Shown piece after piece: positions 2-22,526 of a stretch of DNA of 23,941 bases; the first letter of the stretch is position 1, and the number at the start of each line of letters is the position of its first letter. The translations under genes were made by a program, and so were the position numbers. The DNA is from Rhizaria sp. SCN 62-66. Lineage: Eukaryota. The stretch lies in assembly GCA_001724265.1 (NCBI GenBank), contig MEDY01000086.1, positions 62,001-85,941 of the forward strand. The letters run 5' to 3'. A model generated the notes under the pieces. The model searched no databases. It worked only from the letters and a program-made list of their open reading frames with translations, and was not told the DNA's origin.

Positions 2-3000
2 GACGAGCGCGACCTCATGCGCCGCATCATCATCGCGCTCGAACACACAGGCGTTCCGCCCGTCATTACTGCACACGGCGACGTCGTTGCAGGCCGCGTC
101 TTCGGCCACGCGGATCTTGGTCAGGCCGCCTACCTGGCGGAAAGTCAAGCCACGTCTATGAATGCGAACACTTACGCCGCCTCTGTGTCCGCGAACGTTG
201 CTGCGATGTTCAACCGAGGCGGTCTGGTCAAGCTAGCGGCGCCGTTCGCCACAGAGCCCCCGGCGGCTGCGGCGGGCTCTGCGAAGCGGGGAGCCGCGCT
301 TGCCGCGGCTGCTACTGCGGAGGCCGAGGCTGAGGCCGAAGCCGAGGCTGCCGCCGCTGCTGCTGATGCTGCGAACGAGGCTGACTACGATGACGACAAC
401 AATAATGATAGCGATGAGAGTGGTGCTTACTACAACGCGAGTAACGGCCATAGCAGCGCCGGCGACGGGAGCGATGGCGAGTATTACTACAACAGCCACG
501 GCCGTCACACCGGCACGGCCACTGCGTTGGGCTCACTCACCATTGATTGTGGCGATGACGATCAGCACAACAGCGGTTTTAACTCTGCTAGTGACAACGA
601 CAATAGTAACAGCGCCTACGTCAGTGACAGCGACGCCGGTATTGCACCGGATGCTCGCAAAGTTAAGCCGCCGCGTGGCGCTCGTCCGTCACTCCAACAG
701 GGTGGCCGAGCCTCCCACAGTCGCAGCTCGAGCTTGAGCTCTGACGTTCACAGCAATCACCACGACGGCGACACTAGTTTCTCCGGGAACGGTGACCACA
801 ACGACGTCTATCTTTCCCCGCAGCAACAATACCAACGTCAACTCTTCAGTAACAACGCTCGTAGCAGTCACACTCAGAACCAGACTCAAACCCATAGCCA
901 GAGCACCAGTCAGTCTCAGGCGCCGACTCAGGGTCAGACCCAGACTGGGCCCACGTGGCACCTGCTGCCGCCGCACGTCGCCGGCGAGTTGGCCCTGCTC
1001 CGCGCGTACGTGCGCCTGTTATCGCACTCGCATGAGTTGCACCACCTGCAGGACGAGCTGGCCACCGCCGGGACCGGTGCGGACGCCTCGGTGTCGTACT
1101 TCGGTGACGTGTCGCTGCATGCGTTCAAGCTCGTCGTCTCCTATAGCACGGGCAATGCGAAGCTGCTGGAGTCGTTTCTCCCGCAGGCCTTCACGCCCGC
1201 CGCGGCGAACACCGCGCCCGCCAACACTCGCGCGAGCAGTAGCACGAGTGCGAGTGCAGTACAGGCGCAAGCGCAGTCGCAACATCAACAAACCGCAGCA
1301 ACAGCAGCAGCAGCAGCAGCAGCAGCTGATGATGACGGCGTTATGAACAGCAAGACCGCGTCTCTGTACAACTTCGAGGTCGCGCCGCGGTCCGCGCTGT
1401 CATTCCTGCGCACCACCACGAGCACCGCGCTGGCGCCCTACGCCGCCGCCGCGCTGCGCGCCGCCACCTCGGCGCTGCTCAACATTAACTCGGCCGCGCT
1501 CACGGTTGCGCCGTTGCGCGTGCGCCACAGCCTCGCCGCGTCGCAGGCATTTCAGGCCCAGGTCGCGCGCCACTACGGCATCGCGCTCGCGGCGAACTTA
1601 CATCGGATTCTCGGCGCTGCGGAAGTCTTCGGCAATCTGGGCGGACTCACTGACGCGCTCATCAACGCATTCATGGACTATTTCTCGGAACCCGTCATCG
1701 CGGTCTCGGACTCGGCACGCGCGGCGCCGACTACCCTCGCCGTCCCGCTCGCAGTCGCGCGCGGCTTGACTTCCGGTCTCGCCCACGGCCACCGCGCGCT
1801 GGTGCAGCACATCGTCTTCGGGGTCGCCAACACCATCGCGCGCACGACGACGTCCCTGGCCAAGGGCACTGCGGCGCTGACCGCCGCGCTGGGCGTGTAC
1901 TGTGAGCCCGACCCGGCCGAGCTCGAGGAGGCCGCGGCGCGCGGGCTCACGGTCGCGAACAACGCGGCCGGCGCTGCGGCGGCTCCTATGGGCGAGGCGG
2001 GGGCCGAGGGGTGGTGGTACCAGTCGGTCGGCGCGGGACAGGGCGTGGCGCTTGCCGTGGCGCCGTGGCTGCTGCGGGCTCTGGTGCCGGTGGCATATGT
2101 CCTCGCACCAGACACTGACGACGACAACACTTCGAATCCTGCCGGCAGCATTGCCAACACGGACCTGATTGGTAACAATGCCGCTGCACAGTTAGAACAG
2201 CAGCAGCAGCAGCAGCAAGGTGATAGTAACAGTGTTCCTGTCGCTGCTCGTAATAGCAGTGAGAGCACGACGAAGGGGATTCTGTATCGCATCGGTCTGC
2301 TGTTGCGTACGTTCATCAATGAACACAGCAACAACACCACCAACACGAATATTGCGCACTCGAATGCTTCTTCTGTTGCCCCGAATTCCGCCAACAATGC
2401 TTTGACTACTACAGCTCTCGTCAACAACCCTTACACGGTTGACTACCCCACTTACCCGGGTAAGTACCCCTGGCGCGGCCTACGCTCCCACGTGCTCATG
2501 CTGCTCACTCTGCCCCCGCTCGGCGCTCTCAACACGCTCAGCCGCGCCGCCCGCGCCGTCGCCCGCTACTCTGACCCGGTCTCTCTGTCGCCTACGCACC
2601 GACCCGTGGCGCCCGTGCGGCCGCCGCGGCTACTGCACCTGGGCCAGCTGCTGCTGCCTTCGCAGTACTACCCTGGCTTTGTGCGGGACGTCGTTGCGCA
2701 GTACCTTGCGCAGAACCCCGGCCAGCGCTTTGTGACGTACGCGCTCAGCGAAGGGGTAAGCTTCGGAGCGCGGATGCTCGTGCTGATCACAACGGCAAAG
2801 CTGCTGGTGTTTACGGTTGAGCTCGAGTGTGACCCGCCGTCGACAGCCTCTGTGCGCGTCACGAACGAGGGCGGTAGCACGAGGAGCAACGCAGCGAACG
2901 TTACTGACTCGAGCGGTGGTGTCAACGGCAACGACGCGAGTTTAAATGCAGGCGGTGATAACAGTCACGCGAACTCAAGCTCTAGCGCGAATGACCCAAG

Positions 3001-4891
3001 TGCCCCCTCAGACTCCATCAAGGCTGGCTCCAGCGGCTCCGTTGGAGGGAATGGTGTGCACAACAGCGGTGGCAACGGCTTTAGCAGTTGGCGCGCTTTC
3101 CTGTTTGGCTCCACGTTCCTCTCACGCGCTAAGTACAGCAGCAGCACCAGCAGCACCAGCGGCACCAACGCCAGGGCGGCGGGCGGCGGCCAAACCAAGA
3201 GCAAGACGACCGTCGTCAAGCGCATCGCGCTCCCAACCTCTGTTGCGGCGACGACTGCGGCGCTGCTGGCCACCGTGCGTCGTATTGCGGACGCTAGCCG
3301 CAACAGCAGCGGCAACAACAGTGGCAGGCGTTACTACTCGTACAAGCAAGCCGGTGCCGCCAAGAGTGGCGCTGCCAATGTGGACGCAAATCCTGGCGGG
3401 TTTAGCCCCACTGCTGGCGCTGCTGCTTCTGCGAATACTCGTTGCAGCAGCACTGTGGTCAGCGAATGCGACGGCGGGCACTGCTGCAGTCACGACTCCG
3501 CGCTCCGGCCCATCAAGCTTGAGCAAGTTTGGTCTGCGATCATCCAGTTCAACAACAACAATAGAAACAACAACAGCACCACCAACATCACGTTTGCTAC
3601 CCGCAATCGCGCCACTCGCTCCCACGGGCCTGCCGCCGCTCTTACCGCATCAAGCGCGTCGCACCACCGCAGCTCCCGGGGCGGCACTCGCGTGGTGCTC
3701 TCCCTGGCCGGCCCCGGCGCCGGCACGGGCGCTCTGGCGCGGCTGCGCGCGCTGGTTACGGCCAACACCGTCTCCCGCGCGCGCACACACACGCACAGCG
3801 CCGACGCCGCCGCCTTCGCTTCGGCCTATGCGCGCGCCGCCGCGACTCAAGTGCTTGCGCGTATCGCCGCCTACAAAGCCGCCGCGGCCGCCAAGGCCGC
3901 GCGCGCGGCGGCGCTTGTCGAGGACACGCCGGCCGCCGCGGGGCCCGCTGCTGCCGCAGCCGCCGCGGCCGCCGCAGCCGCCTCCGCGAACGCCGAGGCC
4001 GCGGCCGCGCTGGAGCAGGCGTTCATCACGGGCGCGGCGCGCGCGGCTGCGGTGAAGCGGCGCCTGCTGGCGAGCTACTGCAACACCACGCCCACGGTCA
4101 CCGCGGTGACAATGCCGACGCTGGAGACGCTCGCGGCGGAGCTGGTGCGCAGTCACAGTCACATGCATGCGCACACCAGTGGGGGCAGCAGCCACCAGTA
4201 TCAAGACTCGCTGCTTGTCGGTGTCCCGAAACACGTTTCTGCTGCGCTCGTCTCTGCATTAACGCTGCCCGCTGCCGCGCCTGCGCCTGTGCCTGTGCCG
4301 GCCCCCGCGGCTGCCGCAGCGGCCGCCGCGCCCGCCGCCGCGGCTGCTGCCGCGGCTGCCGCAGCGTCCATCAACGGCGTCTCCGCTGCGACGGCGACTG
4401 CGGCTGCCGCTGCCGCTGCCAGCGCCGTCGTGGCCGCCGTCACCGACGCCGCATCCGCGCACGCCAGCGTGGGCGAACTGCTGTCGTCGCTGCACCACAC
4501 AGTGCGCACCAGCGGCGGTGGCGGCGTCGGCAACGGCGCGGGCGCCAGTGTGCTGCTCGCCGCCGCGCGCCGCGTTGTGCTGGTGCACGAGTTCGACCTC
4601 AAAACCATCGCGGGTTTCGCAGCCAGGCCCGCGGCGCTGCGGCTGAACCTGCGCATGGAGCCCGGATTCGTGTACAACGACAAGAAGATGAAGAAAGAGC
4701 TCATGCGGCGCGCCGAGGCTGCGGGCGTAAGCAGCCGCGTCGCGCTGAGCCACAAGATCGTGCTGCAGCCGGGCGGCGTCGTGGTCGAGAACTTTGTCGA
4801 GGTGGAGCTCGCGTGCCCGCTGCCTGCCGAGACGATCCGTGAGGTAGGCCGCTGTGTCGCCTTCATCAAGGACAACGCCGGGGTGATCTAA
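2..4891 (+). CDS. VPS13: VPS13-family lipid transfer protein, C-terminal part (5'-truncated by the window; no intron seen)
   Basis: Frame open from base 2 to TAA at 4889-4891, followed by AT-rich sequence. Segments match the VPS13 C-terminal/ATG2_C region: YFGDVSLHAFKLVVSY, LNINSAALTVAPL...VARHYGIALAANLHRILGAAEVFGNLGGL...FMDYFSEP, GLAHGHRALVQHIVFGVANTIARTTTSLAKG, RGL...LLTLPPLGALNTLSRAARAV, RPPR, then a PH-like end. Recognised from motifs by eye. Confidence 0.85.
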   Translation, partial: DERDLMRRIIIALEHTGVPPVITAHGDVVAGRVFGHADLGQAAYLAESQATSMNANTYAASVSANVAAMFNRGGLVKLAAPFATEPPAAAAGSAKRGAALAAAATAEAEAEAEAEAAAAAADAANEADYDDDNNNDSDESGAYYNASNGHSSAGDGSDGEYYYNSHGRHTGTATALGSLTIDCGDDDQHNSGFNSASDNDNSNSAYVSDSDAGIAPDARKVKPPRGARPSLQQGGRASHSRSSSLSSDVHSNHHDGDTSFSGNGDHNDVYLSPQQQYQRQLFSNNARSSHTQNQTQTHSQSTSQSQAPTQGQTQTGPTWHLLPPHVAGELALLRAYVRLLSHSHELHHLQDELATAGTGADASVSYFGDVSLHAFKLVVSYSTGNAKLLESFLPQAFTPAAANTAPANTRASSSTSASAVQAQAQSQHQQTAATAAAAAAAADDDGVMNSKTASLYNFEVAPRSALSFLRTTTSTALAPYAAAALRAATSALLNINSAALTVAPLRVRHSLAASQAFQAQVARHYGIALAANLHRILGAAEVFGNLGGLTDALINAFMDYFSEPVIAVSDSARAAPTTLAVPLAVARGLTSGLAHGHRALVQHIVFGVANTIARTTTSLAKGTAALTAALGVYCEPDPAELEEAAARGLTVANNAAGAAAAPMGEAGAEGWWYQSVGAGQGVALAVAPWLLRALVPVAYVLAPDTDDDNTSNPAGSIANTDLIGNNAAAQLEQQQQQQQGDSNSVPVAARNSSESTTKGILYRIGLLLRTFINEHSNNTTNTNIAHSNASSVAPNSANNALTTTALVNNPYTVDYPTYPGKYPWRGLRSHVLMLLTLPPLGALNTLSRAARAVARYSDPVSLSPTHRPVAPVRPPRLLHLGQLLLPSQYYPGFVRDVVAQYLAQNPGQRFVTYALSEGVSFGARMLVLITTAKLLVFTVELECDPPSTASVRVTNEGGSTRSNAANVTDSSGGVNGNDASLNAGGDNSHANSSSSANDPSAPSDSIKAGSSGSVGGNGVHNSGGNGFSSWRAFLFGSTFLSRAKYSSSTSSTSGTNARAAGGGQTKSKTTVVKRIALPTSVAATTAALLATVRRIADASRNSSGNNSGRRYYSYKQAGAAKSGAANVDANPGGFSPTAGAAASANTRCSSTVVSECDGGHCCSHDSALRPIKLEQVWSAIIQFNNNNRNNNSTTNITFATRNRATRSHGPAAALTASSASHHRSSRGGTRVVLSLAGPGAGTGALARLRALVTANTVSRARTHTHSADAAAFASAYARAAATQVLARIAAYKAAAAAKAARAAALVEDTPAAAGPAAAAAAAAAAAASANAEAAAALEQAFITGAARAAAVKRRLLASYCNTTPTVTAVTMPTLETLAAELVRSHSHMHAHTSGGSSHQYQDSLLVGVPKHVSAALVSALTLPAAAPAPVPVPAPAAAAAAAAPAAAAAAAAAAASINGVSAATATAAAAAAASAVVAAVTDAASAHASVGELLSSLHHTVRTSGGGGVGNGAGASVLLAAARRVVLVHEFDLKTIAGFAARPAALRLNLRMEPGFVYNDKKMKKELMRRAEAAGVSSRVALSHKIVLQPGGVVVENFVEVELACPLPAETIREVGRCVAFIKDNAGVI

Positions 4892-5884
4892 GATATTAAA
4901 GCAAAACCGGAGAGCTGGAAGTAGAGCTCGTCGGTTGTAAGGTTGGAGAATACGAATTTTATTATGTAGCTTTGTTAAGACTTTGGAACTCGCGTTTAAC
5001 CGCGCTCTATTAATTTTTTACTAATCATACAAACAATGTTATTTCTCGCTCAACATGCGACCCAGCTTTGAAAGGAAACGACAGGAGAATACAGGAACCG
5101 CGCAATGAAAATGCTCTGACGATTGCGAGCGCCGAGAACCGATGACCAAAATGGTGACGGTGATGAGCCGGAAAATGCTGACGGGTTCCACAATAGTTCG
5201 CGGATCCGTCGACTCGTGGGCTGGAATGAATTTCCGCAAACCGTGTTTGTTGACTTGACTGGTATGGCCCCCTGTGACTCACCATTACGGTGACACTCCC
5301 TCTAGTATTGGCTGTCACCATGATCATGACAAATTTAGGATATGTTTGCTCAATTTTATCGTTTATGGTGTTTCGGTGAATACACTCGAGTGTATTCTAA
5401 GTTTCCGTATTGCTCGATGGGACGAGACCTCTCACTATATCACTGGCGGTCAAGTCTGAATGTCGTGCGTGTTGTCATGATTGTTCTGAGTACGTTGTTA
5501 CCATTGTTATTATTGTTGTGGCTGTTGCCCGTGCATATACCTGCTGTTGACTTACAATCACACGTACCTCACAAGAACATGATCGTGATCATGAGTGCGT
5601 CGTGTAAGTAAACTAGTCTTCGTACAAAGTGTACACTCCTCTAAGTTGGTAGCTTACTCATTGTTCTTCTGATTTCGAACAATGTAAGTGAGTCCATCTC
5701 GGCTCCTGTGTGCTTGCTACTTAGATCGCCCACTCTTAAGTGCGAGATCATGGGTACTTAGACAGTAGGTACACAAACGTGTAAACCTATGACTCGGTCG
5801 AAGTACGAGAGTCACGAGCGCACTAAAAGCATGTTAGCAGTAGATTGAACGCGTATCGCGCACTTAGGTCTTGAAGTGCGCCAC

Positions 5885-6750
5885 TTAGAGCTTATAGACG
5901 ACAGAGACGCCGTCCGACAGTGGGAGCATGCACACCTCCACACGCTCGTCCTTGAAGATCTTCTCGTTGAGCGCCTTGATGGCCACCGTGGACGGACTCG
6001 ACTCGCGGCTCGTGTCGGCGCCGGCGGGCGCGTCGGGGTTCGAAGCCACGGAGCCGCCCATGAGGGTGTTGTCGACGACGACGATGCCGCCCTTGCGCAG
6101 AAGCTGCAGTGCAAGCTCGTAGTAGGCGTCATAGCCAGTCTTGTCGGCGTCCAGGAAGACGATGTCGACGGTGCCCGCGGCGCCGGCGTCAAGCAGCTGC
6201 TGCATCGACTGCGTCGCGGGCGCGACCTGGAGCTTGATCTTGTCTTCGACGCCGGCCTCGGCCCAGAAGGGCTTGCCCACCGCGGGGAACTCGCTGCTGA
6301 TGTCGAATGCGTGCACAACACCGTCAGCGGGCAGCGCGAGCGCGAAGGCAAGCGCAGTGAAGCCGGTGAAAACGCCCACCTCGACCACGGTCTTGGCGTT
6401 GGTAAGGCGCACGAGCATCTGCAGGAAGGACGCCGAGTCGAGCGGGGAGACCATGCCGGCGCAGGACGCAGAGACGTCGTTAGCGTACGTCTCGCGGTGC
6501 AGCGCGAGCAGGGCCGGGTGCGTGCGGCACGAAACCGAGATTAGGTAGTTGTGGAGATGCGGCGGGAGGCCGCGGCTAGGTGGAGATTGGAGAATAATGC
6601 GGTGAGAAAGGAATCGACATAGACGAAACAGGGTGAGATGATGTGTTCCAAATGCTGAAAGATATAGCAAGTTATACGCAGTGCAGAAGCAGTATGATAA
6701 AGAAATAATAAAGAATTAGTGTGAAAGTACCTTTTGCTGGGAATAGACAT
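5885..6750 (-). CDS. SAM-dependent O-methyltransferase, caffeoyl-CoA OMT / COMTD1-like (Methyltransf_3 type), 236 aa
   Basis: Exons 6750-6731 (MSIPSK) and 6575-5885; intron 6730-6576 GTACTT...CCTAG keeps the frame. Motifs VEVGVFTGFT, AFDIS, FLDADK, VVDNTL, MLPLSDGV. Stop TAA. Confidence 0.92.
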
Positions 6751-7477
6751 GAGTTTCACGAAGATACTCTGTGTAGACAGACAAAATGCAGAGAGATCAA
6801 AGGGGGGTCTTGACAGACGTCGATCGCTCGCGTGCCACAGGCCACTGTCTCGGACTTTGAGTTGTGCTGGAATTCACGCAATAGAACGCGATGTTGGTCA
6901 AATATAAGCTTGTCCACTGTTATTTTGAGTTATGGTGTATTGTGTCGATGTTCTATATCTTGCTTTGGAACAAAGTATGGGCTAGATCTGCCAAGATATT
7001 GGTATATGACATTGGGTTTTGATAAGATATGACGCGGATATCATCAGTTTAAACCTAAATAAGAATCTGATTTGGTTACATCTTAACGATTGGCGTAAGA
7101 AATCAAAAATTCAAACTAATATAACCAAGATAAAATGTAGTTTGAAGCGTGACTAGAGTCTGACCACGAACGGAAATGAGCTCAACGGCTAGAGCAGTCC
7201 AGAGAGACTACAACCCTCACTTTGCACTGCGTCTACGCCATCAATATATCGTCATTATGGAATTTTACAGCAAAAACCTCGTATTAATTTGTGTTTTTAA
7301 TCTTATATTTCTATTAAACTTTCACCGCTGACATTTACATCTCTAATAACGACAACCGAAGTCGTTACTCTTTTCAAACACAAATCTCTTCCTCGCGCCC
7401 CTGTGCCTCCCTCGCAGCCCCTCGTAGTCTTCCTCCGCAAGTGCATCCGCGGGCTCGCGACTGCTTCCTGTGGCAAG
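6751..7477. promoter_or_regulatory. Putative bidirectional promoter region (O-methyltransferase / kinesin)
   Basis: AT-rich ~730-bp gap between divergent start codons; contains a reverse CCAAT (CGATTGGCG, 7087-7095). Confidence 0.55.
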
Positions 7478-10400
7478 ATGTCATCTTCGTCCGCGATCAG
7501 CTCCGGCGTGCGCGTGCTGGTCCGCATCCGCCCTCTGCTGCCCTCGCTCTCCGAGACCGGCCGGCCTGTGAGCCACCTGCAGCCAGATGCCGGCGACGGC
7601 CGCTCGGTCTCGCTCCAGCTCAACAACACGTTGCACCAGTACACCTTCGACTCGGTCATGCCGCCCGCGGCGACCCAGAGTGACGTCTTCTACTCCGGCG
7701 GCATTGACTCGATGCTCGACTGTGTCGCCGCTGGTTACAGCGCGACCATATTCGCCTATGGCCAGACCGGAAGCGGCAAAACGCACACCATGGACGGTGT
7801 CGGCGCCTCCACGGGCTCAAACAGTGGCAGCGGTGGCGGCGTTGGTGGCGCAACTGCTGCAGCCAATCAAGGAGGTAATCACGGCGTGTCAGAGGCAAGT
7901 GGTGTAACGATCCGCTCGATCTACGCTTTGTACGATAAACTCGCATCGGATCCCAACAATATCCTGGGCAACAACAGTAATAATCCGAGCAGTGGTCAGG
8001 ATCCTCAGCAGCAGCCGCAGTACGGTGTCTCTGTGACGTGCTCTTTTGTTCAGATCTATCAAGAACATGTGTACGATCTCCTCTCAACATCTCTTTCCAT
8101 CTCGTCCTCCTCCTCGTCCTCGTCCTCGGCGAACACGATGGGGGAGGCGGGCGGCCCCAACAGCAACGGCAGTCTCAAGGTCCGATGGGCTCAGGGCCGC
8201 GACTTTTACGTCGACGGCTTAACTTCAAGCACCTGTTCGACGCCGCAACAGGCGATCGCATGCTTTCTCGCTGGGACGAAGCGGCGTGTTGTGGCGCAGC
8301 ATCGGCTGAACACGGAGTCGTCGCGCTCGCACTCGCTTTTTACGCTCACAGTAACGAAGACGCCGGTTAACGGCAACGGCAACGGCAACAGTAACACTGC
8401 TGCTGCTGCCGTGATTGCACCAGGGTCCGTTGCGCGACATCTGACACTGCAACTTCGGCAATATATATCATCGAAAAAATTTTGCGCGTTAAAAGTGTTG
8501 TATCTTGGGCTCGATTTTTTGTTATTTCAATCAGCCGCGATATAATCAATCATGGTCTAAACTATATCCTCGCGTGTTATCATTTAACACGATAGCCTAA
8601 CCTCACTTACGATCCTCCTCCGACTTGCTTTGTTGTTTGCCCTTTTCAACTCTAAACTCCCCTCAGCGCCGTTGTCTCAAAGCTGACCCTGGTTGACCTT
8701 GCCGGCTCCGAGCGCAACGCCCAGACCGGTGCCACGGGCAAGCTGCTCAGCCAGGCCATCGGCATCAACCGGTCACTCTTCGTGCTGCGCAAAGTCATCA
8801 AGGCTCTCGCCACGGGCGGCAGCAGCAACACCAGCAGTAAGAGTGCGAGCGCGAACAGCGCCGTGCACGTGCCGTACCGTGACTCGACGCTGACTCGCTT
8901 GTTGCAACACTCCCTAGGCGGCAACTGTTTGACCCTCATGATCGCCTGTCTGGCCCCCTTAGACGCGTATCAGGAGGAGAATCTAAGTACCCTGAACTAC
9001 GCCGCGCTGACGACGAAGATCGTCAACAGGGCCACGGTTGGCGAGGACCCGCGGGCGGCGCTTATTCGCCAGCTCCGCGCTGAAAACCAGGTACGCGTGA
9101 CCTAGCGAACCATCGCATAACTCAAAACACTAGAACAGAGAGTGAACTGCATCTATCAAGCCTATAGTCAGTAATCTATTACTGACTCTATTCTGAACAA
9201 ATCATAACCATAGCATATATTTCAAATGAGTTTTTGCTTATTCACTGCTTTTGATCAAAATAATCTCACGTTTTATTCTGTGAATCTTTGTTTTTTGTTT
9301 TGTTTGTCTTCATAGACGTTGAAAGACACTCTGGCCCGAGCCAAGAGGCTCTTCATCATGGCTGGCTTAGTCAATACGGCCCCCGGTGCGGCGTCATCCT
9401 TATCGTCGCAGAATGTAAGCACCTCGGGTCCGAACGTAAGTGCCCTTCTGGGCTCAGTCTCCTGGGGCGACATCGAGACGGGCGCGTGGACGGGGGCTTC
9501 GACTCTGGCGAACCAAAGTCAGGCCGCGCTCCAACTGCAGCAGCAGCAGCAAAGCCAAGCCGCCTCGGGCCCTCACAGCGGCAATCCGAGCAGCGCTAAC
9601 TCTGCCGCTGCCGCCGCTGCTGCCGGCGGCGGTCTGAGTGGACGCGACTCGTTGCTGCTGCAACAGAGGCTGGTGGCGACTGTGGGCATGGCCCAGGCTC
9701 TGATGTCCGAGAACACAGAGCTGCGGGACAGGCTGGCGCAGGCGGAGGCCGAAGCGGAGGCTGTGGGCGACGATAACGCTGAGCTGCAGTATGAAAACAG
9801 CGACTTGCGCGAGAAAATCGACTTCCTTGAAGCTGTTTTGCTCGAAGGCAACAGCAACAACAACAACAATGGTAACACCACTGATGGCAGTCCTAGCACT
9901 CTTGACAGCGTCCTCAGTGCCCTTACTCTCTCGAACAGCAACGGCGGCAATAGCGCCAACGCTCATGCGAACGCGCACTCGAGAGCTGCTGCGATCGCGC
10001 TCACCAACAACAACAACAATGACCCGACTGCTGCTGGTATTCCCAGCGACGCGGCTGCCGCCGCCGCCGCCGCCGCCCGCGCCGAAGCGGCCGCGCTGCG
10101 CGACCTCGTGCTGCAGTCGCGCTTTGAAGCGCAGCGTGAGCACAAGCGGGCAGCTCAGCTTGCGGCTCAGCTCGCTAAGCTGCTCCAACAACAGGGCGGG
10201 GGCACAGGTACCCCCATGGGTTCTGGCGGCTCCGGCGGGGGCGGTCTGCGCAAGAGCGGCACAGGCTCCAGGGCTCAGTCTAACACTGGCTACGGCTCTG
10301 GATCCGGCGGTGGCGCTGGCGCGGGAGGCTTTGACCCGAGCCGGCTGGGCATGTCCGTGACCCGCCGCGGTGGCGCGCCCGTGGCGGCCACCGCAGGCAC

Positions 10401-10873
10401 CTACGCCGCTGTGGCCGGCGGCAAAAGCAGTCTCGGCGGTGGCGGCGGCGGCGGTGGCGGTGGCAAGATGAGTGTGAAGCAGCATAAGAAGCTTGTGAAG
10501 CAGCAAAGCAAGGCTGGGAGTGGCGGAAACAGGCGCGTCGTCGTCGCGCACACGGGCGAGAGCGCTGGCAGCTACAACAACAACAAAGCGCGGATCACGG
10601 GTGTCACGGGTTCTGGGACTGGGAGCGGCGGTACTAACAACAACAAGGCTAATATGCGTGACAATAGCGTCGGCTACGGCGATATCAACCCGTTCGCGAG
10701 CCAGCAGGCGTGGCAGGAGCAGCAGCAGCAACACCAGTATCAACCGCAGTCTCAACAACAGCAGCCGCCGCCGCAGCAGCAGCAATTTCAGGGACAGCAA
10801 CAGCAGCAGCAGCAGTATGCGGCATGGGTGTAGCAGCAGCGCCAGCTTGCCTGGGCTCAATACGAGCAGCAGA

Positions 10874-10918
<45 letters not shown>

Positions 10919-11160
10919 TGCAACAGGGCTCTCGTATTCCTATCATTCGGCATGATAACAGCAACTATGCGGGGCAGCGGCAGCATCAGCAGATGCAGCC
11001 GCAGCAACAGCCTTCGCAACAACTGCAACAGCAACAGCAGCAGCAGCAGCAACAACAGCAGTATTATCATCATCACCAGCAACAACAGCATCAACAGCAG
11101 AACGCAAATCAACTGCAGCAGATGTACTATCAGCAACAGCAGCAGCAGCCACGGCAATGA
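7478..11160 (+). CDS. Kinesin motor protein (KIF12/kinesin-16-like) with coiled coil and Gly/Gln-rich tail; 962 aa if TAG 10831-10833 is a stop, 1071 aa if read to TGA 11158-11160
   Basis: Exons 7478-8424, 8667-9090, 9316-11160. Motifs VRVLVRIRP, AYGQTGSGKT (P-loop), NTESSRSH (switch I), LVDLAGSER (switch II), HVPYRDSTLTRLLQHSLGGN. LKVRWAQGRDFYVDGL resembles KIF12-type motors; the subfamily call is less certain than the family call. Confidence 0.93.
10876..10917 (+). repeat. (CAG)14 perfect trinucleotide repeat, poly-Gln in the kinesin frame, downstream of the internal TAG
   Basis: Read directly from the sequence. Confidence 0.95.
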
Positions 11161-11678
11161 GCCTGTGTAGCTTATACCTATCAAGCGCAGCTGGAGAAAT
11201 GCAACAACACGTTGTTATTGACCCATTGCTCAAGTTAGGTAGATGCTGTGCAAGTGTGATGCGCATTGGCAGATGCTATATTGGAGTGATATTAATGATA
11301 TATTGAAAGCTACATTAGAAATCTACGATTATTTAGATACACACTTAATTATACAATACCTCACTTTGGATTCTGTACTATATCTAATAGTTTCATTGCT
11401 CTGTACCGCGAAATGTTGGTGTGACTAGAAATCGCGAGAATGCGACCAGAGCCGTTATGAGCGAAGTCGAAAGCGTGCACTCTCGAACCTCTCTGTATTC
11501 CATGCACGGACCGTGTGTGCAATAATCGACGATATAGTGGAATATTACAATTGACTTTAATTATTTTCGTGAAATAATACTTCTTAGAGATCTTGTTGTC
11601 GTGCTGGGGAGCCCTCCAACGAATGCCAAGAGCCCTGCTCTCACGTTTGAATCCTTTCTTTTCCTTTGCAGCGTCGAG

Positions 11679-13040
11679 ATGGCCACAGCTCCCGCTCTGA
11701 CCGCCAACGTTCTTCTTGTCGGTACGCATATTACACTGACTTTATAACGCTTCGCTCCTCTTGTACCAGCTGATTTAAGCTCTGTCTACATTCTCCTCTC
11801 CTCTCTTGATCAATCTCTAAACGCTGCTGTTGTTTCCTCTTCGTTTTGCGTTGCCACGGTGTTGTTCCGACCCCGCAGGCCCCGCCAAGGCCGGCAAGTC
11901 TACCCTTGCCCGCGTTTATCACGGCCGCCCCTACTCCAAGGTCTACGAAATGGTACGTAACCCCACAACACAGCCTACTACGCAAACGGCTTTCGCTACT
12001 CACTGTTGCCACACTCGTACACACTCGCACTCACTGCCTCACTCACACTCTCTCTGTGTCGTTCTGCTGCCTTTTGCAGACCGAGGGCGTGGAGGTTCTC
12101 AACTCCCCCGTCAAGGTCGACGGCACCACGGTCAACCTCATGGTCTTTGACTGCGGCGGCGACACCATCTACGCCGACATGAAGAAACACGTCGTACGTC
12201 GTAACTACAATACGCAGCAAACTACTGTCATAATCGGAACATATCACGCTTACAACTTAGTTCATCAGTTTATGTACTTGTTATTATATTATATTTAAAT
12301 CTAAACCTGTTATGAGTACATCCTCTTAGTGTGTTTATGGCTGTATTTTGCCTCACATGAATCTCTCCCATTCTTCCGTGGTCACGACAATCGCTGTTGT
12401 CATGTTGTCATCTTCCATCTCCCCAGGCGCCCCAAGCGAGCGCCATCGTTGCCTGCTTTGACCTCACCAGCAGCGACTCGCTGCGCGCCGCCCTCGCCCA
12501 GGCCCAGGAGGCCCTCCGTCTTGCCAACACAAGCTCTAGCTCCAGCTCCAATGCCAGTGTCAGTGCCAGTGCGGTGGGCGCTAAGCCGCTGGGGCTGCTA
12601 GTGGGCTGCAAGAACGACCTGCGCGACGTGGCCGAGGTCACGCCGGAGCAGGCGCAACAGGTACGACCATTACGCTTGATCTTGAGCCCCAAGGCGTGTA
12701 ACAATGCTCACAATAACAACAACGCTTTTTAAGAGGAATCCTAACGTGTATATATCGAGTTATAATATTAAAAAGTTAGTATATAACTGTATTGGCACTT
12801 GAATTATCTATATATCGTGCTTTTATCTCGTCAAAGCCTCACTCCATGGATATACCCCGCATTTCATTTCGTGGACTGTGCTTTTAGGCGGCCGACTCAC
12901 TGGGCCTGAGCCTCTTCTGGGCCTCGGCGCAGGACAGCCAGGGCGTGGAGGCGCCCTTCGCGGCGCTGGCCGAGGCCGTGAAGCAGCGCTACCTGGCCTC
13001 CGTGGCCGCCGCCAAGAGCGTCTTCGGCGACGGCCAGTGA
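11679..13040 (+). CDS. IFT27: Intraflagellar transport protein 27 (Rab-like 4 small GTPase), 205 aa
   Basis: Exons 11679-11721, 11879-11952, 12080-12193, 12427-12660, 12888-13040, all GT-AG and in frame. G1 GPAKAGKS, YEMTEGVE, G3 FDCGG, G4 GCKND, G5 WASA. The VEAPF...LA...Y C-terminal helix and absence of a prenylation cysteine fit IFT27. Stop TGA. Confidence 0.85.
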
Positions 13041-13173
13041 GAGGGCCGTTGTGACGTCGCAACAAGCTAATAACCAGTTAGCTTAACGAAGTGCGAGTCT
13101 CAATCCCACTGGTGACTGTTGTGTGACCTCCGGTGACTCCCCTCAGAAGGCGTGAGGCGTAAAGCGGGTGCTC

Positions 13174-13706
13174 TCACTTGTCGCTGTCGTTGTCCGGCTC
13201 CCGCCCTGGCTCGGGCTGCTGTTGTTGCTGCTGCTGAGCAGTGAGGGCCTGGCGCAGGCCATCGACTACAGGAATACAAAACACGTTGAAGTCGGAACAA
13301 AAACGTTAGGCATCCACGATTAACTAAAGTATAATAAATAAACCGAGATATAGTTAATGCAATACAGTGTTATATCTTGTTTATGTGTGAATACGTACTA
13401 TGCGACTGGAAAAGGGCCTGCTGCGAAGCCAAAAAGGCCTTGAGATCGTCCATCTCGGCACGAGCGGCAGTCGCCTCAGCGCGCAGAATCGCAATCTTGG
13501 CGCGTGCCTGCAAGCAAAAACATATAAAACATAATGTAAATAACGTGAAAATCATGAAAAAAGTGCGACAAGAGGACATGACATGGTTGTGTATGAAGCG
13601 TTAGGTGATAAGAACGTACCTCGTCCTTGGTGAGCTTCTGGCCAGGCGTGAGGCCAAGGGCGGTCTCAGCGGCCTCGGTAGTAGAGTTCAAATTAGAATC
13701 AGACAT
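13174..13706 (-). CDS. Small coiled-coil hypothetical protein, 95 aa
   Basis: Exons 13706-13620, 13507-13399, 13265-13174, both introns GTACGT...AG. Joined product MSDSNLNSTTEAAETALGLTPGQKLTKDEARAKIAILRAEATAARAEMDDLKAFLASQQALFQSHIDGLRQALTAQQQQQQQPEPGREPDNDSDK. Stop TGA. Confidence 0.8.
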
Positions 13707-14236
13707 AATGCACCTGAACACAACGGTATGTCAAGCTATAGCACAACTGACAGATGTTTGACGGCGTATGAAGCGGTGAACAAATCGATGGCTTGCAGAC
13801 AATGACCGTGAGCAGATGCAGGGGGCCGAAAAAGGAAAAGGAATTTACGTTTTCCATGATTCACGGCCCAGCGATGCGCGGAGCTTTGAGCTACTTATAT
13901 GCGTTCCCATGTCCATCGCAGCCTCTGATATTGCTGTGAATAACACTGCCCTCTCGTGGAAAATATCCTTTTCAAATTGTGATCTGTTCCCGATCCGTCT
14001 GAATCCCGCACGAGCGTGTCCCTTAAATCCCGACCCCCACTCACTCACATTCTCACCTTCGTTCATATTTGCCGCCCTCTTCTGCTTGACTGCGTCCCGC
14101 TGTCGCTTTCGCGTGCTTTTCTCCGCGTTGCCGCACACTTCGTGTGCATCTTTTCTCCTCCTGCTTGGTCTCTGTCGCGGTTGCTCCCGTTGCCCATCGC
14201 TCTTTGCCACCTTCGTCGCACTCTTCAGTTAGTCGT
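13707..14236. promoter_or_regulatory. Putative bidirectional promoter region (small coiled-coil gene / RPLP2)
   Basis: 530-bp gap between divergent start codons; long pyrimidine-rich tract on the RPLP2 side. Confidence 0.55.
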
Positions 14237-14587
14237 ATGAAGCACATTGCCGCCTACCTCCTCGCCGCCATCGCCGGCAACGAGAAGCCCACCGCCGCCG
14301 ACGTCACCAAGATCCTCGACTCCGTTGGCATCCAGGCCGACGAGGCCCGCCTCAACAAGCTCATCGAGGAGCTCAAGGGCAAGTCCCTCGACGAGGTCCT
14401 TGCTGCTGGTGAGGCCCTCCTCGCCACCGCCCCCGCTGCTGGCGCCGCCAAGTCTGGCTCTGCCAGTGGCTCCGCGAGCGGCTCTGGCTCCGGCTCTGGC
14501 TCTGGCTCCGCCTCTGGCTCTGGCTCTTCCTCCTCGTCTGGCTCCGACGACGGCAAGGGCAAGAAGGCTGGCTTCTCCCTCTTCTAA
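14237..14587 (+). CDS. RPLP2: 60S ribosomal stalk protein P2 with atypical C-terminus, 116 aa
   Basis: MKHIAAYLLA...PTAADVTKILDSVGIQADEARLNKLIEELKGKSLDEVLAAG is the P2 N-terminal domain. Strong C-ending codon bias as expected for a highly expressed gene. Ends GFSLF-TAA. Confidence 0.95.
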   Translation: MKHIAAYLLAAIAGNEKPTAADVTKILDSVGIQADEARLNKLIEELKGKSLDEVLAAGEALLATAPAAGAAKSGSASGSASGSGSGSGSGSASGSGSSSSSGSDDGKGKKAGFSLF

Positions 14588-15083
14588 GCAAAACACTCCA
14601 TACTATCGGGTGTTACCACGCTCAAAACGCTATTGTAACACACGTTGTACGCTGTGGCAGCTCGCTGTCGGTGGTGCGCCGCGCGTGTGAAGTAGCGAAC
14701 GGACGAAGGACGGACGGTGGATCTTAACACGGTACTGGTCGCTGCGCAACAAGACTCTTGCTGCGCCGCACTAATGCTCATGTCGACTCTCTAAAAGCGG
14801 GGCGGGATTGCTAATAATACATTCTACACTCTGCTTTTACATGAATCACAAACAAATTTTCACGATATATATGTTTCTATCAATACTTCCTTATCATAAG
14901 TACTCATAACACTCGCTCTGACTCTTATCTCGTAATTGATGTTTGTAAATGGTATACTCTTGTTTATGGCCTAATATCTCGTCATGAGTTATTAATGAAT
15001 CACAAAAAAATGTGTACATAAGTGAACAGCGCAGTCACACGACGATTGTAATTGACAGTAACGGCCTGACATATTGCTGTGGT

Positions 15084-15116
15084 GGCACTTACATATCGAG
15101 AGGCACTTACATATCG
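15084..15116. repeat. 15-bp direct repeat GGCACTTACATATCG x2 just 3' of the large minus-strand gene
   Basis: Copies at 15084-15098 and 15102-15116. Confidence 0.85.
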
Positions 15117-15122
15117 TTGCTC

Positions 15123-18100
15123 TCATTGTTGCTGGTTACTGAGCGACTGCTGCAGCAAATCGTGCCACTCCTGCACCGACAACGCCCCGCCAGCACTCCC
15201 ACTTGCACTCACACTCGCACTAGCGCTGCTACTGCTGCGGCTGTTGTTGTTGCTGCTGCTGCTGTTGTCATTGCCGCGCTCGTTAGCAATCATGCCCATA
15301 AAGAACTCTGCAACGCGAGCATAGTCGCCCCCGCCGCCACCGCCGCTGGCCGGGTGACCGTGGGCACCGCGAGTACCGCTGGTGCCCTGGCCCTGCTGCT
15401 GCTGTGCGTCTAAGTAGGCTGAGAAGGCCTCGGCAGCCGTCTGCGTCTCTGCCTCCTCCTCCTCGTCGTCGTCGCCGTCGTCGTTAGCGTCGTCACCTTT
15501 GATGTCAGTGCGAGCATTACCCCGGCCTCGGCGGCCGCCGCTACTGCGAATGCTGGCGTGACTGCCGCCGCCGCCGCCGACGACGCCGCCGTTGTTGTTG
15601 TTCTTACGGCCGATGGCGTTGAGTTGGCGCATGAACGCGCGCATCGCCGCCCCGTGAGGGTCAGTCCCATCATCGTCACCGTGAGTGTAACCAGTGTCAT
15701 CGGCGTCGTCGTCGTCGCCGTCGCCGTCAGCAGCGGCGGCGGAGGCCTTGGCCCTGGCGGCGTTGGCCCGGGCTGCGGAGATCACAGCGGAGCCGCCGCC
15801 GACCCACTTTGCCATGGCGTTTGCCTTGGACTTGGCGTTGGCAGCAGAGATGTCGGAGCCGGTGTACCCAACGTAGCCATCCTCGACGTCGTCGACATTA
15901 TTGTTCTTACCGTAGCTATCACCGTTGTCATCATCGTCGTCGTCGCTACTAAGGTCGTAGCCACTGCTCTCTTCCCCTGCCTCATCGTCGTCATCGTCAC
16001 CGTCGTCTTCGTCGTCACCGCCATCGCCACCATTAGCGGCATGGTTATGAACATCAGCATTACCTTGCTGCTGTTGCAGCTGCTTGTGCTGCCGCAGCCA
16101 TTGCTTCCTGAACTCCCTCTCTTGCTCCTCCTTCTCCGCCGCAGCCTGGACCTGCTTCGTGAACAGCATCGTTTCGGTCAGCGCCCGTTGCGAGGCCGCG
16201 TCCAGCTGCCGCGGCACGAACGGCAAACGCGCAGGCTCTTCAAGTTTAGCCGCGTCGGCGTCGGGAAGCTTAGCCGCGTCTGAGTTCGCGTTGTGGCTGT
16301 CAGTCATGGCTGAACTCTGAGCGTGAACGTGGTTCTTTGCAGTGAAGCTTGTGGTTGGAGTTGTTTGGAAAGCAGCGAAATCCCGGTCGATGTCAACAAT
16401 GCCGTTGAGAGTCCTGTTGCTGACGGCTGCGGTGGCAGCAACAAACAGTGCCCTATCATCGTCATCATCGTCATCGTCGTTGTTGTCTTCATCGCCGTTG
16501 TTGACAACGGTGATCTTTGCACTGCGAGTGATGTGACTTCGACCAGGAGTACTGCCATTTGCAGCATTCGCAGCAGCCGCAGAAGCAGCAGGGGCAGCAG
16601 CAGCGGCAGCGGCAGTGGCGGCGGCAGTGAGCCTAGAGAGAGCTTGTGTGAACTCGGCGTCAGCCTCGGCGTCAGCCTTGGTCTTGGCCTTCGTCTTTTG
16701 CGTCGTGACCCCCGCGTTGGCCTTGCTAGCGCTGTGAGAGGCGCCAGCTGACGTGTAAGTAGCAGTGTTGGGCTCTAAAGGGGGAGGACCCGCGTCGTCG
16801 TCATCGTCACCGTCATTGTCGCCCATCGCAGAGTGGGCCTTGCGAGTCTTGGTCTCGGCCTCCGCCTCCGCCTCGGCCTCTGCCTCTGCCCGGGCCCGTG
16901 CAACCTCGTTCGCAGAGTCCGCAAAGGGGTCGTCTTCGGCGGCCAGAGACGACGACATGTTGCTGAACGCCTTAATTAAAGCCGCCTTGGCTTCGGCATC
17001 GAGCCATGCAGGGGGCTCGTTTGACTGAGCCTTAGACTTAGACTTCGCGGACTTGCCCTTGCCCTTAAACTCGTCCTCGTCGTCTAAGGGGCTCTTAGTG
17101 ACGTCAGCGCCGTCCTTAAGCCACTTGTTGACCGTGGCCAGCAGGTCGCTCGGAAGCTTCGTCTCACTCTCACGACCATTGCCGTTATCGCTATCACTCG
17201 CGTCGTCGTCGATGTCGCCGTCGCCGGTCATCAAATTGTGGCGGCGGGGCTTCCGCGTGCTCTTAGCAGCGGTCTTCGCTGTCTTCGTCTTCGAAGCAGC
17301 CTTAGACGCGCTCTCGGCAGCATCATTGCGCTCGCTGTCACTGTCACCGCCGCCGTCGTCATTGCTGTTCTGACGCCTTCGCTCCTCGCGCCGCTCAGCT
17401 CGCCGCTGCGCACGGTCGGCGGCGGCCACGGCGGCCCTCAGCGCTGCCGCCGCAGCTGGCGGCAGCGCCCGCGAGGCCGCCGCCACCAGCGTCTCCCCGG
17501 GGGGCAGCCAGGACCGCGGCAGACGGGCCTGGGCGCGCGCCATGGCCGCGGCCATAGCGGCCTCATCAACATCATCAGCATCAGCAGCAGCAGCAGCAGC
17601 GGCGGCGGCGGCGCCAGTGTCTGCGATGTCAGTCATCGCGTCTGCATGAGCATTCGGGGCCGCACTAGAGTCTGTAGCAAAGGTGTTGTTGTTGTTGATG
17701 TCCACAAAAGGAGCGAATGTGGGCATTGGCGGCGCAAGCATTGGACCGAAAAAGGACGGGTCACTGTAAAAAAAGTTGTCACCGAACTCGTTGTTGCTAA
17801 CCGCGTTAGCAGTGTTGTTGTTGCTGTTAATAATGATGCCAGCAGCAGCGGCAATAGCAGGGTCAATGGTACTAAGATCCACAGCAGCAGCGCTGGTGTT
17901 ATTCGAGAACACCATGGAAGGCAGCTGGAAGGGAGTTGAGATAAGGGTCGTGCGACTCGTGATATCAGAGTCAACTGCTGCAGCAGAACTGCTAGCGTTA
18001 ACGGTGTCGTGAGACAACATAGCAACAGCAGCGTTACTTTGTTGTTGGCTTAACAGACTGCCTTGTTGGCTCAAGAGAAGCTTCGTATCAGCGTCAAACT

Positions 18101-20414
18101 CAGGCTTTGGCAGCTGCGGCAGCTTCATGGCCATCAACACGTCATACGACGGAGTCAAAACGAAGCCAATATCACTCGTAGCAGCGTTCGCAGCGTTAGG
18201 AGCAGTCACATTCGCCTCAGTCTTGACAGTTGTCTTTCGGCTCTTGTTCGCGTTGATCGAAGCATTATTGGCAACCGCGTCGCTAAAGGCCTTGCTATAG
18301 TTATTGTCGGTGATGGTGAAGGCCTCAGTCACCGCAGCGGCGGCCTCGGCGTCCCGCTTCGCCTCCCCCTCCAGGCCAAACAACTGGAACCGCTTCTGCT
18401 GCCACTCCGCAGCGGCGTCCGGGGTGACAAGCGCAGTCTCGGCCAAAGTACGCCCCTCGGGCAAAACAGCGCCCTCAGCATCAGCATCAGCATCAGCATC
18501 AGCGTCAGCGTTCGCGTCAGCGTTCGCGCGAACGTGCGCACTCTTCGTGTGGGCCTTGGCAGCGGCGCGCGTCTTGGCGGACTCCGCGGCCTTGGCCTTC
18601 ATATGCTGCGCGATTTGCTCCGTGAGCGCAGCAATCGTCTCGGCCTGCTCGCTCCCGGAGACCGATGGCGGCTTAAATTCCGTGTAAGTACCACTTAGAC
18701 CGCCGTCCTGGTCGTCCTCCAACGCAGTCGCGTCGGCGCGGATCGCGTCATGAGGGTTTTCGCTATTTTCGCTGTTGTTGTTTTTGTTTTTCTTGGCGCG
18801 GACAAGACGCGGATTAGTCGCAGCGTCGGCGGCGGCGGCCGCCGCAAGAGCAATGGCCAGTGCCTCGGCCTTGGTCTCAGCCTCAGTCTTGACAATCCCG
18901 GCGCTCGCACTCGCAAAGTCGGTGTCATCGGCCACAGTCGTGTTTGAGCTCGAACTAGAGCTACGACTGTTGTTGCTGCTGCTGCTGCTGGTGTTGTTGC
19001 TGTTGTTGTTGACGTTATTGTTGTTGACGCTGTTGACGCTTGCGACGGAAGGGAGGTAGTCGTCGTCGTCATCGTCGTCGTCGTTGCGACTGCTCTTGGC
19101 GCCCTTACCCTTGCTCCCACCGGCAGTCACCTTGCCGCCCGCACTGGTGCGGGTGCGACTGGAGCTCGAGCTGTTGGGGCTAGAGGCAGTCTTGGTGAAG
19201 TCAAACGCGGAAGCTGCTGCCTTTCGCTGTTGTTGCTGCTGTTGCTGCTGTTGCAGCAGCTCAGAGTCCTGGTGTTGCTTGTGCAGAGCCAAGACCTTCA
19301 TCGCCACTTCCCACTCGTCGGCGTCGTCTAAGGAGGTGCTTACACCGACACTGGCACTCGCGCTGTAAGGGGCGGTTGCTGCTGCTGCGGTGCTACTGAC
19401 ACCGAGGTTCGCGACGCCGTGCGCCATCATCCGCACACTTACATCGTCGTCTATGTAAGTACCAGCGCGGTAAGCAGTCTCGGCCTCAGCACCAGCCGCC
19501 GCCGCAGGCGCAAGGTCGTAGAGCGCGGCAGTGCCGTCCCGAGCCGCCTCGAGTGCGTCAGCCCACAGGCCGGCCTGGCGCGCGCTTACACCAGCTAAGG
19601 GCGCTCCGAGCCTGTGTAAGGGCGCGCCGAGCTGTGCATCGAGCTCGTTTTGAGCGGCGAGGAACGCGACGCCCGCGCGGGCCTGCTGCTCCTGCCGCTG
19701 CGCCGCCAGAGAAAGCACGCGGGCAGTCTGCGTCTCCGTCTCGGCATCCGTGTCGGTCATCGCGCCCGCCTTTGCAGGCGCAGGCTAGTTCGAGGTCGAG
19801 GTCGAGGTCGTGTGGGAGCTGCTCGCGAGGGAGGCCAACAGGGGATTAGAGCGCTGGCGCGGCACGAAGTTGAAGTCGACGGCATCGCCATCGTCGTCGC
19901 CGTCGTCGCCGTAGCCGCCGCCGAGCGCAGTCAGGCTGGCAGCATCAGCGTCGGCGTCCGGACTGGGGTTCCAGTCGCCGTTGCCATTGCGGGTACGGGC
20001 AAAGGCGTTCGTGTTGTTCGCGGCGGCAGCGGCAGCGGCGTCAGCAGAGGCGCGGGCGGCGGCGCGTGAGGCTGAGAAGGCGTCGCTGTTGTTGCTGCTG
20101 GTGCTGACAATGTTGCTGAATGTCACCCTCTTCGTCGTTGATGTAGCAGGCTTGCTGCTGCCGGTGGAGGCGCCAAAGCTAGGAGCGGAAGCAAAGCCGC
20201 TAGCGCTAAGGGGAGAGCTAGAGCTGGCGCCAAAGGCGAAGCTTGACTGGGTTGCAGCAGTAGTGCCAAATCCAGCGCCAGCAGTTTGGCTGACGCCGAA
20301 GGCAGTGCTTGCCGGGAGACTACTGCTGGCTGCGGCGGAGGGCTCCGGCTTGACTGCGGGGGCCGGGCGGGGCTCGGGCTTGACTGCCGGGCCGCTCCGG
20401 GGGTGGCCGCTCAT
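15123..20414 (-). CDS. Large low-complexity, acidic/Ala-rich hypothetical protein; 1763 aa if the in-frame TAG at 19787-19785 is decoded, otherwise 1545 aa from ATG 19760
   Basis: ORFs 20414-19785 and 19760-15123 share one frame and are separated only by TAG plus 8 sense codons. GC and codon style are uniform across the junction. Stop TGA. No recognisable domain. Confidence 0.75.
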
Positions 20415-21132
20415 GCAATCAGTCGCAGCAGCACGGTGCAGTAACGCGGCAGAGTGATAAGGGCGCGCGCAGAGAAGGGAGCGGGGGCGGGGACTGGGGC
20501 GGCTTGGTGATGAACGCAAGCGAGGGTAGTCTGCGGGATAGACGTACCTGCCTTGCCTCTAGACAAGTTATAACCAAAAAAAGAAAAAGAAATTATGAGT
20601 TCTAGTCAATGAACACTGTTTTGATTTCACAGAGGTTGCTTAAGAGTTGATACTTGCGAGGAATGACGTGCCACCGAGGCCGATGCGATTGGCGCGGTTC
20701 TCTGAAGTCGCGAAAAATCGGAACTGCGGACTCATAGAGTGGCGCCATCGCTCCGTCAGTGGCACTATGACTACGCTCCTATGATACAATAGCATGTATT
20801 CTATATTTGTTCGTTTACATTGTTTGAACTAGGGATTATCTATACCACTTCCGAGTACCAATTCGCCCTCGCCTCCGCATTCCTGTCTGACACCCCGCCA
20901 GCAAACACCACAAACTGTTCGACCACGCTCGACCACTATATTATATCAACATTTTATTGTCATATCTCACACGCCAATTACGTAGTCGATTCGTTTATTG
21001 CTTTCTTTTGTCACAACTCCTCTTTGCTCCACTGAAAACAGACAACTCCACTCTTCCTCTCCCTCAGCCCCAGGTCACATCGGCACACCAGCAGCAGCAG
21101 CAGCAGCGCTTCGCAGCCCAAGCCTCAGCAGC
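20415..21132. promoter_or_regulatory. Putative bidirectional promoter region (large protein / 280-aa protein)
   Basis: ~720-bp gap between divergent start codons; contains CGATTGGCG (20686-20694) and TGACGTG. Confidence 0.5.
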
Positions 21133-21772
21133 ATGTCTTTCCTCGGCGTCTCCGGCTCCATCACCCTCGCGGGCGGGCCCATCTCGGCCACGGCCCCCGT
21201 TTCGGCCTCGTTTCCATGCTCTGATTTCGCCGCCGCGACCTCGTTCCCGGCCTCGGCGCCACCGAGCGTCTCCGCCGCGCTCGCCAAGACCCGCAACGGC
21301 AACGCCGACCCGAGCAACGGGGCGGGGGCCGCGATGGGCGAGGAGCAGCAGCAGGCGGAGGACGAAAAGACCCTCAACTCCTACGTCGCCACCGACGCCT
21401 ACACCTCCTCTCTCATCCCTACTAACAACGGCAACGCGAGCAGCAACACCACCAGTACCACTCAGAGGACGGCCACCGCGGCCTCGCTGCTGCAGCTGAC
21501 TCACGCGCTGGCCGCCGCGCGCGCCTACAGCGACAAGGTCCTCACGGAGCTGCTGACGGCGCAAATGCAAGCCGCCGGCCGGCTGCCTGCCGCCAGCAGC
21601 AGCAGCACGGGCAAAGTGACGCTCGGACAGGTGCGTCCCCCCAGCAAGCGGCATACTGTGATATATCTCGTCATATTCGCACAAAACGGTGAATATTTCT
21701 TACTATTCGTATTTTTTCTAGTGATATTCGACTTGAAATTTGTTTTATTTCTCCAAACTCACATTTTTTTGC

Positions 21773-21820
<48 letters not shown>

Positions 21821-22491: not shown

Positions 22492-22526
22492 CTGTTGTTG
22501 TTGTTGTTGCTGTTGTTATTGTTGTT
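22492..22526 (+). repeat. Imperfect (GTT)n microsatellite between convergent genes
   Basis: ctgttgttgttgttgttgctgctgttattgttgtt-type run. Confidence 0.8.

Follow-up and report, generated by a model that had tools for sequence, protein, structure and literature searches.

The window that we analysed, a stretch of 23,941 nucleotides, comes from a eukaryotic nuclear genome and is densely packed with genes. Its exons have a GC content of about 60–70%, its spacers and introns have one of about 30–50%, and the spacers scored as non-coding span roughly 520–990 bases. Ordered by their stop codons, its genes are an ORF of 1,629 codons (2–4891, plus strand; TAA at 4889), an O-methyltransferase gene (TAA at 5885), a kinesin gene on the plus strand (TGA at 11158), a five-exon IFT27-like gene for 205 amino acids (TGA at 13038), a three-exon gene for 95 amino acids (TGA at 13174), RPLP2 (TAA at 14585), the gene of a large low-complexity protein on the minus strand (TGA at 15123), a gene for 280 amino acids (TAA at 22181) and RPL10A (TAA at 23818); there is also a MED19-like region, and PDB matches support uL1 in the window. 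The name VPS13, which an earlier sequence-only reading of the window had given to the first ORF, finds a lead, and a lead only, in the VPS13_C clusters of the protein Atlas (0.88–0.89 for ORF 2–4888), but nothing in Pfam, where ORF 2–4891 has no match at E up to 0.1. A Pfam search with the 280-aa gene, ORF 2–4888 and the distal part of the kinesin tail discussed below likewise returned no family above cut-off. The window contains no tRNA genes and no Rfam matches.

Eight introns were modelled, with lengths of 112–232 bases. Seven of them start with GTACG and one, in the 280-aa gene, with GTGCG, and the GC content of the six for which it was computed lies between 0.34 and 0.54. The donors are unusually uniform (9090, 11722, 11953, 12194 and 12661 on the plus strand; 13619, 13398, 23002 and 22721 on the minus strand), and the MED19-like region holds two more GTACG sites that resemble donors. 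An intron of the 280-aa gene also holds a (CT)n microsatellite of about 40 bases (21776–21817, plus strand).

An in-frame TAG in the Gln-rich tail of a kinesin gene

By its motor domain, the predicted plus-strand gene at 7478–11160 is a member of the kinesin superfamily, as the sequence-only reading had recognised. The gene model begins at ATG 7478 and draws on PF00225, PDB matches and the intron ends. The motor domain is encoded by 7478–8398 and about 8667–9089; these two motor exons match Pfam PF00225 at E = 2.7e-43 (7301–8542) and E = 3.4e-35 (8656–9102), and kinesin motors of the PDB match with E down to 2.5e-22. An intron at 9090–9315 precedes the last exon, which spans 9316–11160 if the TAG described here is read through.

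That TAG (10831–10833, plus strand) is codon 506 of the last exon, lies in the Gln-rich tail and is followed by C. The ORF in front of it (9316–10833, 505 codons) shares its frame with a 108-codon ORF (10834–11160) that ends in TGA at 11158–11160, and 61 of the 108 codons in this post-TAG tail (10834–11157) are CAG or CAA. The sequence thus agrees with the earlier observation of a TAG in the kinesin frame followed by 108 Gln-rich codons, and the accompanying statement that composition turns UTR-like only past the TGA also stands: GC in three 100-base bins is 0.64, 0.54 and 0.46 past the TAG, and 0.45, 0.30 and 0.42 past the TGA. The TGA, which is followed by G and beyond which GC is 0.30–0.45, is the likely true end of the kinesin gene.

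Runs of CAG/CAA keep their phase with the TAG on both sides of it, five of five upstream and 12 of 13 downstream, and every spacer between the in-phase runs (27, 3, 3, 60, 9, 6, 3, 15, 3, 15 and 9 bases) is divisible by three. Together with a GC drop that comes only past the TGA, this phasing argues that the predicted post-TAG tail has evolved under this frame, now or until recently. The open frame in itself, which the sequence-only reading had put forward as an argument for decoding, does not rise above chance. Forward frame +1 is also open across the CAG-rich stretch (10499–11170, 223 codons), as is the minus strand (9454–11214, 586 codons), so that openness past the kinesin TAG is weak evidence; stops in this stretch occur only in forward frame +2, at 10953 and 10956. 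The codon-usage score introduced below is about 0 in the Gln-rich stretch on both sides of the TAG and does not distinguish the frames there, and a test for decay of the coding signal downstream is without power in this tail.

Between 10700 and 10870, a motif in which Ala-Trp is followed by Gln-Gln occurs three times, once before, once spanning and once after the TAG. The first copy has Glu at the position of the TAG, which is too little for assigning an amino acid.

A second in-frame TAG in a large, apparently orphan protein

A second in-frame TAG, absent from the sequence-only reading, lies at 19785–19787 on the minus strand and is also followed by C. Counted along the large low-complexity protein (15123–20414, minus strand), it is codon 210; the protein's frame of 1,763 codons runs from an ATG at 20414 through 209 codons, the TAG and a further 1,553 codons to a TGA at 15123–15125. 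Two minus-strand ORFs (19785–20558 and 15123–19784) abut here, with this one TAG as their sole separator, and an ATG is found nine codons downstream of it.

Repeats of Ala, Asp, Asn and Ser abound in the large protein (DA, poly-D and poly-N, with FG-like motifs near the N-terminus), which has the look of an orphan: it matches no Pfam family above cut-off, and an exhaustive HMMER search with its residues 1–1,200, in which the TAG was written as Q, gave no match among 1.84 billion representatives. A BLASTP comparison of its pre-TAG part with its post-TAG part returned nothing below E = 2. In word-indexed protein searches, one across each of the two TAGs, 8,000 candidates were scored per search and none passed; these searches say nothing on relatives, since the candidate list was probably flooded by low-complexity words.

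We scored codon usage as a log-likelihood per codon, trained on 2,825 codons from the window's other coding sequence. In the gene's own frame, the score is 0.511 on the upstream side of the second TAG and 0.505 on its downstream side; the other two frames score −0.52 to −0.90. For comparison, 216 non-coding windows, each of 100 codons, average −0.33, the highest value among them being 0.015. In 30-codon windows across the TAG the score stays between 0.52 and 0.33, with no dip, and GC past the TAG (0.71, 0.68 and 0.77) shows no drop. The 1,553 codons that follow contain no stop and keep their full codon bias, so that downstream decay is absent.

The same TAG is present in contigs of two separate studies, which are identical to the window there (X1 record 6, covering 19027–21762, and X4 record 21, covering 19407–20320). 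The second TAG is therefore not an assembly error. Its recurrence makes it real but not thereby old or conserved, since what recurs is apparently one strain. The second TAG is a stronger case than the kinesin TAG.

Recurrence of the stretch in metagenomes

Bioreactor and wastewater metagenome runs from several studies, dated 2015–2025, contain the stretch, and none of the runs listed is on record as RNA. We aligned contigs of four runs (X1, X2, X4 and X5) to window positions 3942–23941, an alignment in which low-complexity repeats produced thousands of partial matches and false joints. Between the window and contigs from three of the runs there are no differences over kilobases, and a single nearly identical strain seems to be present in all samples. 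Run X2 (2025) has a second variant at four positions (9029 G>A, 11919 T>C, 11928 C>G and 21270 C>G), where it makes up roughly 30–70% of the local depth; apart from these positions, the near-identity across runs points to a single widespread strain or to very low diversity. Over the start of RPLP2 (14268–14299), differing letters cluster in X2, X4 and X5, at a much higher depth in X5; they probably stem from contigs of other eukaryotes that match the conserved gene. Run X5, which is labelled RNA-Seq and which we judged to be probably DNA, gave no splice or transcript evidence over 3942–23941.

With the motor exon as query, a search of metagenome contigs returned 21 loci, of which the 19 at 39–45% identity were left out; the prokaryote genome contigs and viral contigs that we searched gave no match. 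Locus L001 equals window positions 8501–10341 at 1,841 of 1,841 bases and ends before the kinesin TAG. Locus L002 is a relative at 65% identity whose contig ends within the kinesin motor, and there is no in-frame TAG in its partial kinesin or in the neighbouring 499-codon ORF. That ORF (L002 1–1497, minus strand), which is IFT52-like by eye, lies upstream of the L002 kinesin, while an O-methyltransferase gene lies upstream of the kinesin in the window; with different upstream neighbours, the gene order is not conserved between the two.

Stop codon use at gene ends and within genes

At the nine verified gene ends, TAA is used five times, TGA four times and TAG not at all, which bears out, for these ends, the earlier remark that no other gene in the window ends in TAG; the end of the MED19-like gene is outside this set. 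Eight of the nine stops have G as the next base, whereas each in-frame TAG has C. The preference for G is a strong termination-context bias, considering how few ends were sampled.

Among the approximately 5,200 in-frame codons of the window, TAG occurs twice, CAG 207 times, TTG 31 times and CTG 151 times. If TAG were in settled use for Gln, the TTG to CTG ratio (31 versus 151) would by analogy predict about 40 TAGs, where two are observed. No in-frame TAG is found in the kinesin motor, the O-methyltransferase, RPLP2, the IFT27-like gene or the 1,629-codon ORF 2–4888.

By our own arithmetic, if 20% of gene ends are assumed to be TAG, then none in nine is expected about 13 times in 100. Across eukaryotes, TAG stop use increases with GC3 and remains below that of TGA, as stated in a passage of PMC9348620. 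From a tally of the codon counts, about two-thirds of the transition-type nonsense mutations that could arise here would yield TAG; the fact that both in-frame stops are TAG is therefore not discriminating.

Possible translation of UAG and its alternatives

The single hypothesis that UAG is translated covers both TAGs, the missing TAG ends and the odd following base. On this sequence evidence, we regard the chances that ribosomes translate UAG in this eukaryote as evenly balanced. If UAG is read through, the kinesin would end at the TGA at 11158–11160 with a Gln-rich tail longer by 109 residues, and the large protein would comprise 1,763 residues in a single chain. Mechanistically, we infer, the likeliest basis would be a tRNA with the anticodon CUA together with a release factor that is poor at UAG, with UAA and UGA staying stops. 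As neither TAG lies in a conserved domain, no amino acid is assignable from the window, and Gln, which the sequence-only reading took as most natural, is no more than a candidate. The great rarity of UAG as a sense codon, and the location of both cases in dispensable low-complexity sequence, would fit a young or inefficient reassignment better than a mature one.

The proposal of the sequence-only reading, that UAG is decoded, has thus gained a second TAG, the lack of TAG at nine ends and the C that follows both in-frame TAGs; weighing on the other side are the small count in some 5,200 codons and the fact that there are two sites only, both of low complexity, with none at a conserved residue or in a conserved domain. 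Their positions are also those at which a gene best withstands a premature stop, one towards the end of a disordered tail and the other early in a gene with a downstream ATG.

This placement gives weight to the main rival, under which both TAGs are recent nonsense mutations (CAG to TAG, for example) of a single clonal lineage with the standard code. The kinesin would then have lost a dispensable Gln-rich tail, the large protein would be dead or would start nine codons past its TAG, and the downstream frames would look intact only for want of elapsed time. Premature stops segregate in natural strains, and the present pair resembles them, with one near a 3′ end, in a dispensable tail, and one near a 5′ end with an ATG downstream, each in low-complexity sequence where truncation is best tolerated. 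TAG is also the commonest product of transition-type nonsense mutation at these codon counts and is otherwise missing from the roughly 5,200 codons, and nearly the same strain is present in all runs, with no differences over several kilobases. However, two such events among 11 genes are many. A dead frame of 1,553 codons should soon gain a stop or a frameshift, and this one has neither and retains its full codon bias, as do the 209 codons before the TAG, so that the flanks of the second TAG are undiminished on both sides. The absence of TAG at nine of nine gene ends is also left unexplained. We consider recent nonsense mutation in one lineage unlikely.

Alternatively, both TAGs could be ordinary, long-standing stops. 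The kinesin would end at 10833 with a CAG-rich 3′ untranslated region, the large protein would be two ORFs that share a frame by chance and are separated by the TAG plus eight codons, and the tally of stops would become a normal-looking five TAA, three TGA and two TAG. At the kinesin site, the uninformative open frame, in a CAG-rich stretch that is open in other frames as well, and a codon score of about 0 past the TAG are what this explanation would lead one to expect, but in the Gln-rich stretch the score is about 0 upstream of the TAG as well, and the CAG/CAA runs and spacers past it keep the frame. At the second site, the coding score shows no dip, and a 24-base gap between genes is without parallel here, given scored spacers of about 520–990 bases. 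Past neither TAG does GC fall, unlike at the other stops, and both are followed by C rather than by the G seen at eight of nine other stops. Long-standing termination at the two sites is improbable.

For the kinesin site only, the T at 10831 could be an assembly or base-calling error, or a minority allele, with CAG as the true codon. The stretch is rich in repeats, at which short-read assemblers break, and none of the contig pieces listed for X1, X2, X4 and X5 bridges this position: the nearest leave a gap at 10428–11102, with X1 record 1 stopping at 10427, X1 record 2 beginning at 11103, and GGC and CAG repeats adjoining. No differing letter at 10831 is listed in any of the four runs, cover of that base itself not being demonstrable, while elsewhere the window matches independent contigs letter for letter; moreover, an error here would leave the second TAG, present in two studies, untouched. 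We give an error at 10831 a small chance.

Removal of the TAGs by splicing, with each AG serving as the 3′ end of an intron, is very improbable: both TAGs do read YAG followed by C, like the acceptor of the O-methyltransferase gene (by eye, CTAG then CC), and the minus strand has a GTACGT at 20547, ahead of the large gene's start codon, but GTACG donors are absent from kinesin exon 3 and from the interior of the large gene (no such site on the plus strand between 9091 and 11722, or on the minus strand between 20547 and 13619), the remaining donor-like sites near the kinesin TAG (GTGAGCA at 10136 and GTATGCG at 10815) would need a GC-rich intron, and an intron from 20547 to 19785 would have 763 bases at about 67% GC and would delete 209 codons with full coding bias. 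Neither TAG would be removable by an intron of the type modelled in this genome.

Comparison with read-through and with known codes

A C after the stop weakens termination, and a context of the CAR-YYA type favours read-through. Leaky or programmed read-through of UAG by near-cognate tRNAs resembles the present case in the C after both TAGs and in the CAG after the kinesin TAG. It differs in that the second triplet past the kinesin TAG is CAG and not YYA, and in that unusual downstream structure is absent. Read-through is also usually a minority product and would not keep a frame of 1,553 codons intact. Programmed read-through stimulated by an RNA structure finds no support: when the 100 bases from each TAG onward were folded, their stability did not stand out from that of shuffled sequences (z = +1.52 at the kinesin TAG, where 187 of 200 shuffles are at least as stable; z = −0.35 at the second TAG, with 60 of 200); the C after the stop is the only feature that fits a programmed context.

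Ciliate genomes are AT-rich with very short introns, a description that the 112–232-base introns and GC-rich exons found here do not fit. Codes in which UAG alone is sense, with UAA and UGA as stops, are described in passages of two reports for Iotanema spirale (Gln) and the rhizarian exLh (Leu), and also for Scotinosphaera (Ser), Protocruzia tuzeti (Gln) and phyllopharyngean ciliates (Leu or Gln) (PMC5304391, PMC11687900); the sequence-only reading was correct, to the extent of these passages, that UAG-sense codes with a UAA stop are documented. The window resembles these codes in having TAG in frame inside genes and TAA and TGA at gene ends, with TAG at none of nine. As those passages describe them, however, in-frame UAG is abundant and sits at conserved residues, with 384 in-frame UAG codons in 71 genes of exLh (PMC5304391), whereas here there are two in 11 genes and none is conserved. 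In Amoeboaphelidium protococcarum, UAA and UAG are both described as Gln in passages of the same two reports (PMC5304391, PMC11687900). That organism is similar in being a microbial eukaryote with a flagellate stage that reads a stop codon as an amino acid, but TAA ends five of nine genes here, and the code is therefore a different one. Among the papers listed by our full-text literature search, none deals with a GC-rich, intron-bearing wastewater eukaryote with a UAG change.

Two of the five features that define a UAG-only stop-to-sense code, the absence of UAG from gene ends and a frame that continues across TAG, are seen in the window and hint at such a code. The frame continues together with its coding signal across the second TAG; across the kinesin TAG, it shows only in the phasing of the CAG/CAA runs and of the spacers between them. 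A third feature, UAG in abundance and at conserved residues, is not seen, which in a window this small lowers the claim without excluding it. The remaining two concern a tRNA gene with a CUA anticodon and altered stop-recognition motifs in the N-domain of eRF1; the window contains neither a tRNA gene nor eRF1. If real, the code change would be of an already documented kind, distinguished by a very low use of UAG.

Implications

Translation of UAG could also be placed in time. It is possible, if doubtful, that the window records an early stop-to-sense change, in which UAG has been lost from gene ends and its return within genes has just begun. On this tentative account as a whole, UAG would reappear first in disordered, repeat-rich segments, where any residue is harmless, and nature would here offer an intermediate, either of codon capture or of an ambiguous stage, in the nuclear genome of a non-ciliate.

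The finding bears on how such genomes are annotated and studied. If UAG is sense, gene calling under the standard code truncates or splits proteins, and would here cut off the kinesin tail and divide the 1,763-residue protein into two. The organism turns up, nearly identical each time, in runs of bioreactor and wastewater material dated 2015 to 2025, so samples for sequencing, RNA work and proteomics should be within reach. Few nuclear codes treat UAG and UAA differently, and most of the known ones are mature, with many UAG codons inside genes. If true, a UAG that is missing from gene ends yet hardly used within genes would reveal how a stop-codon reassignment begins, and codon capture could be tested directly against an ambiguous intermediate.
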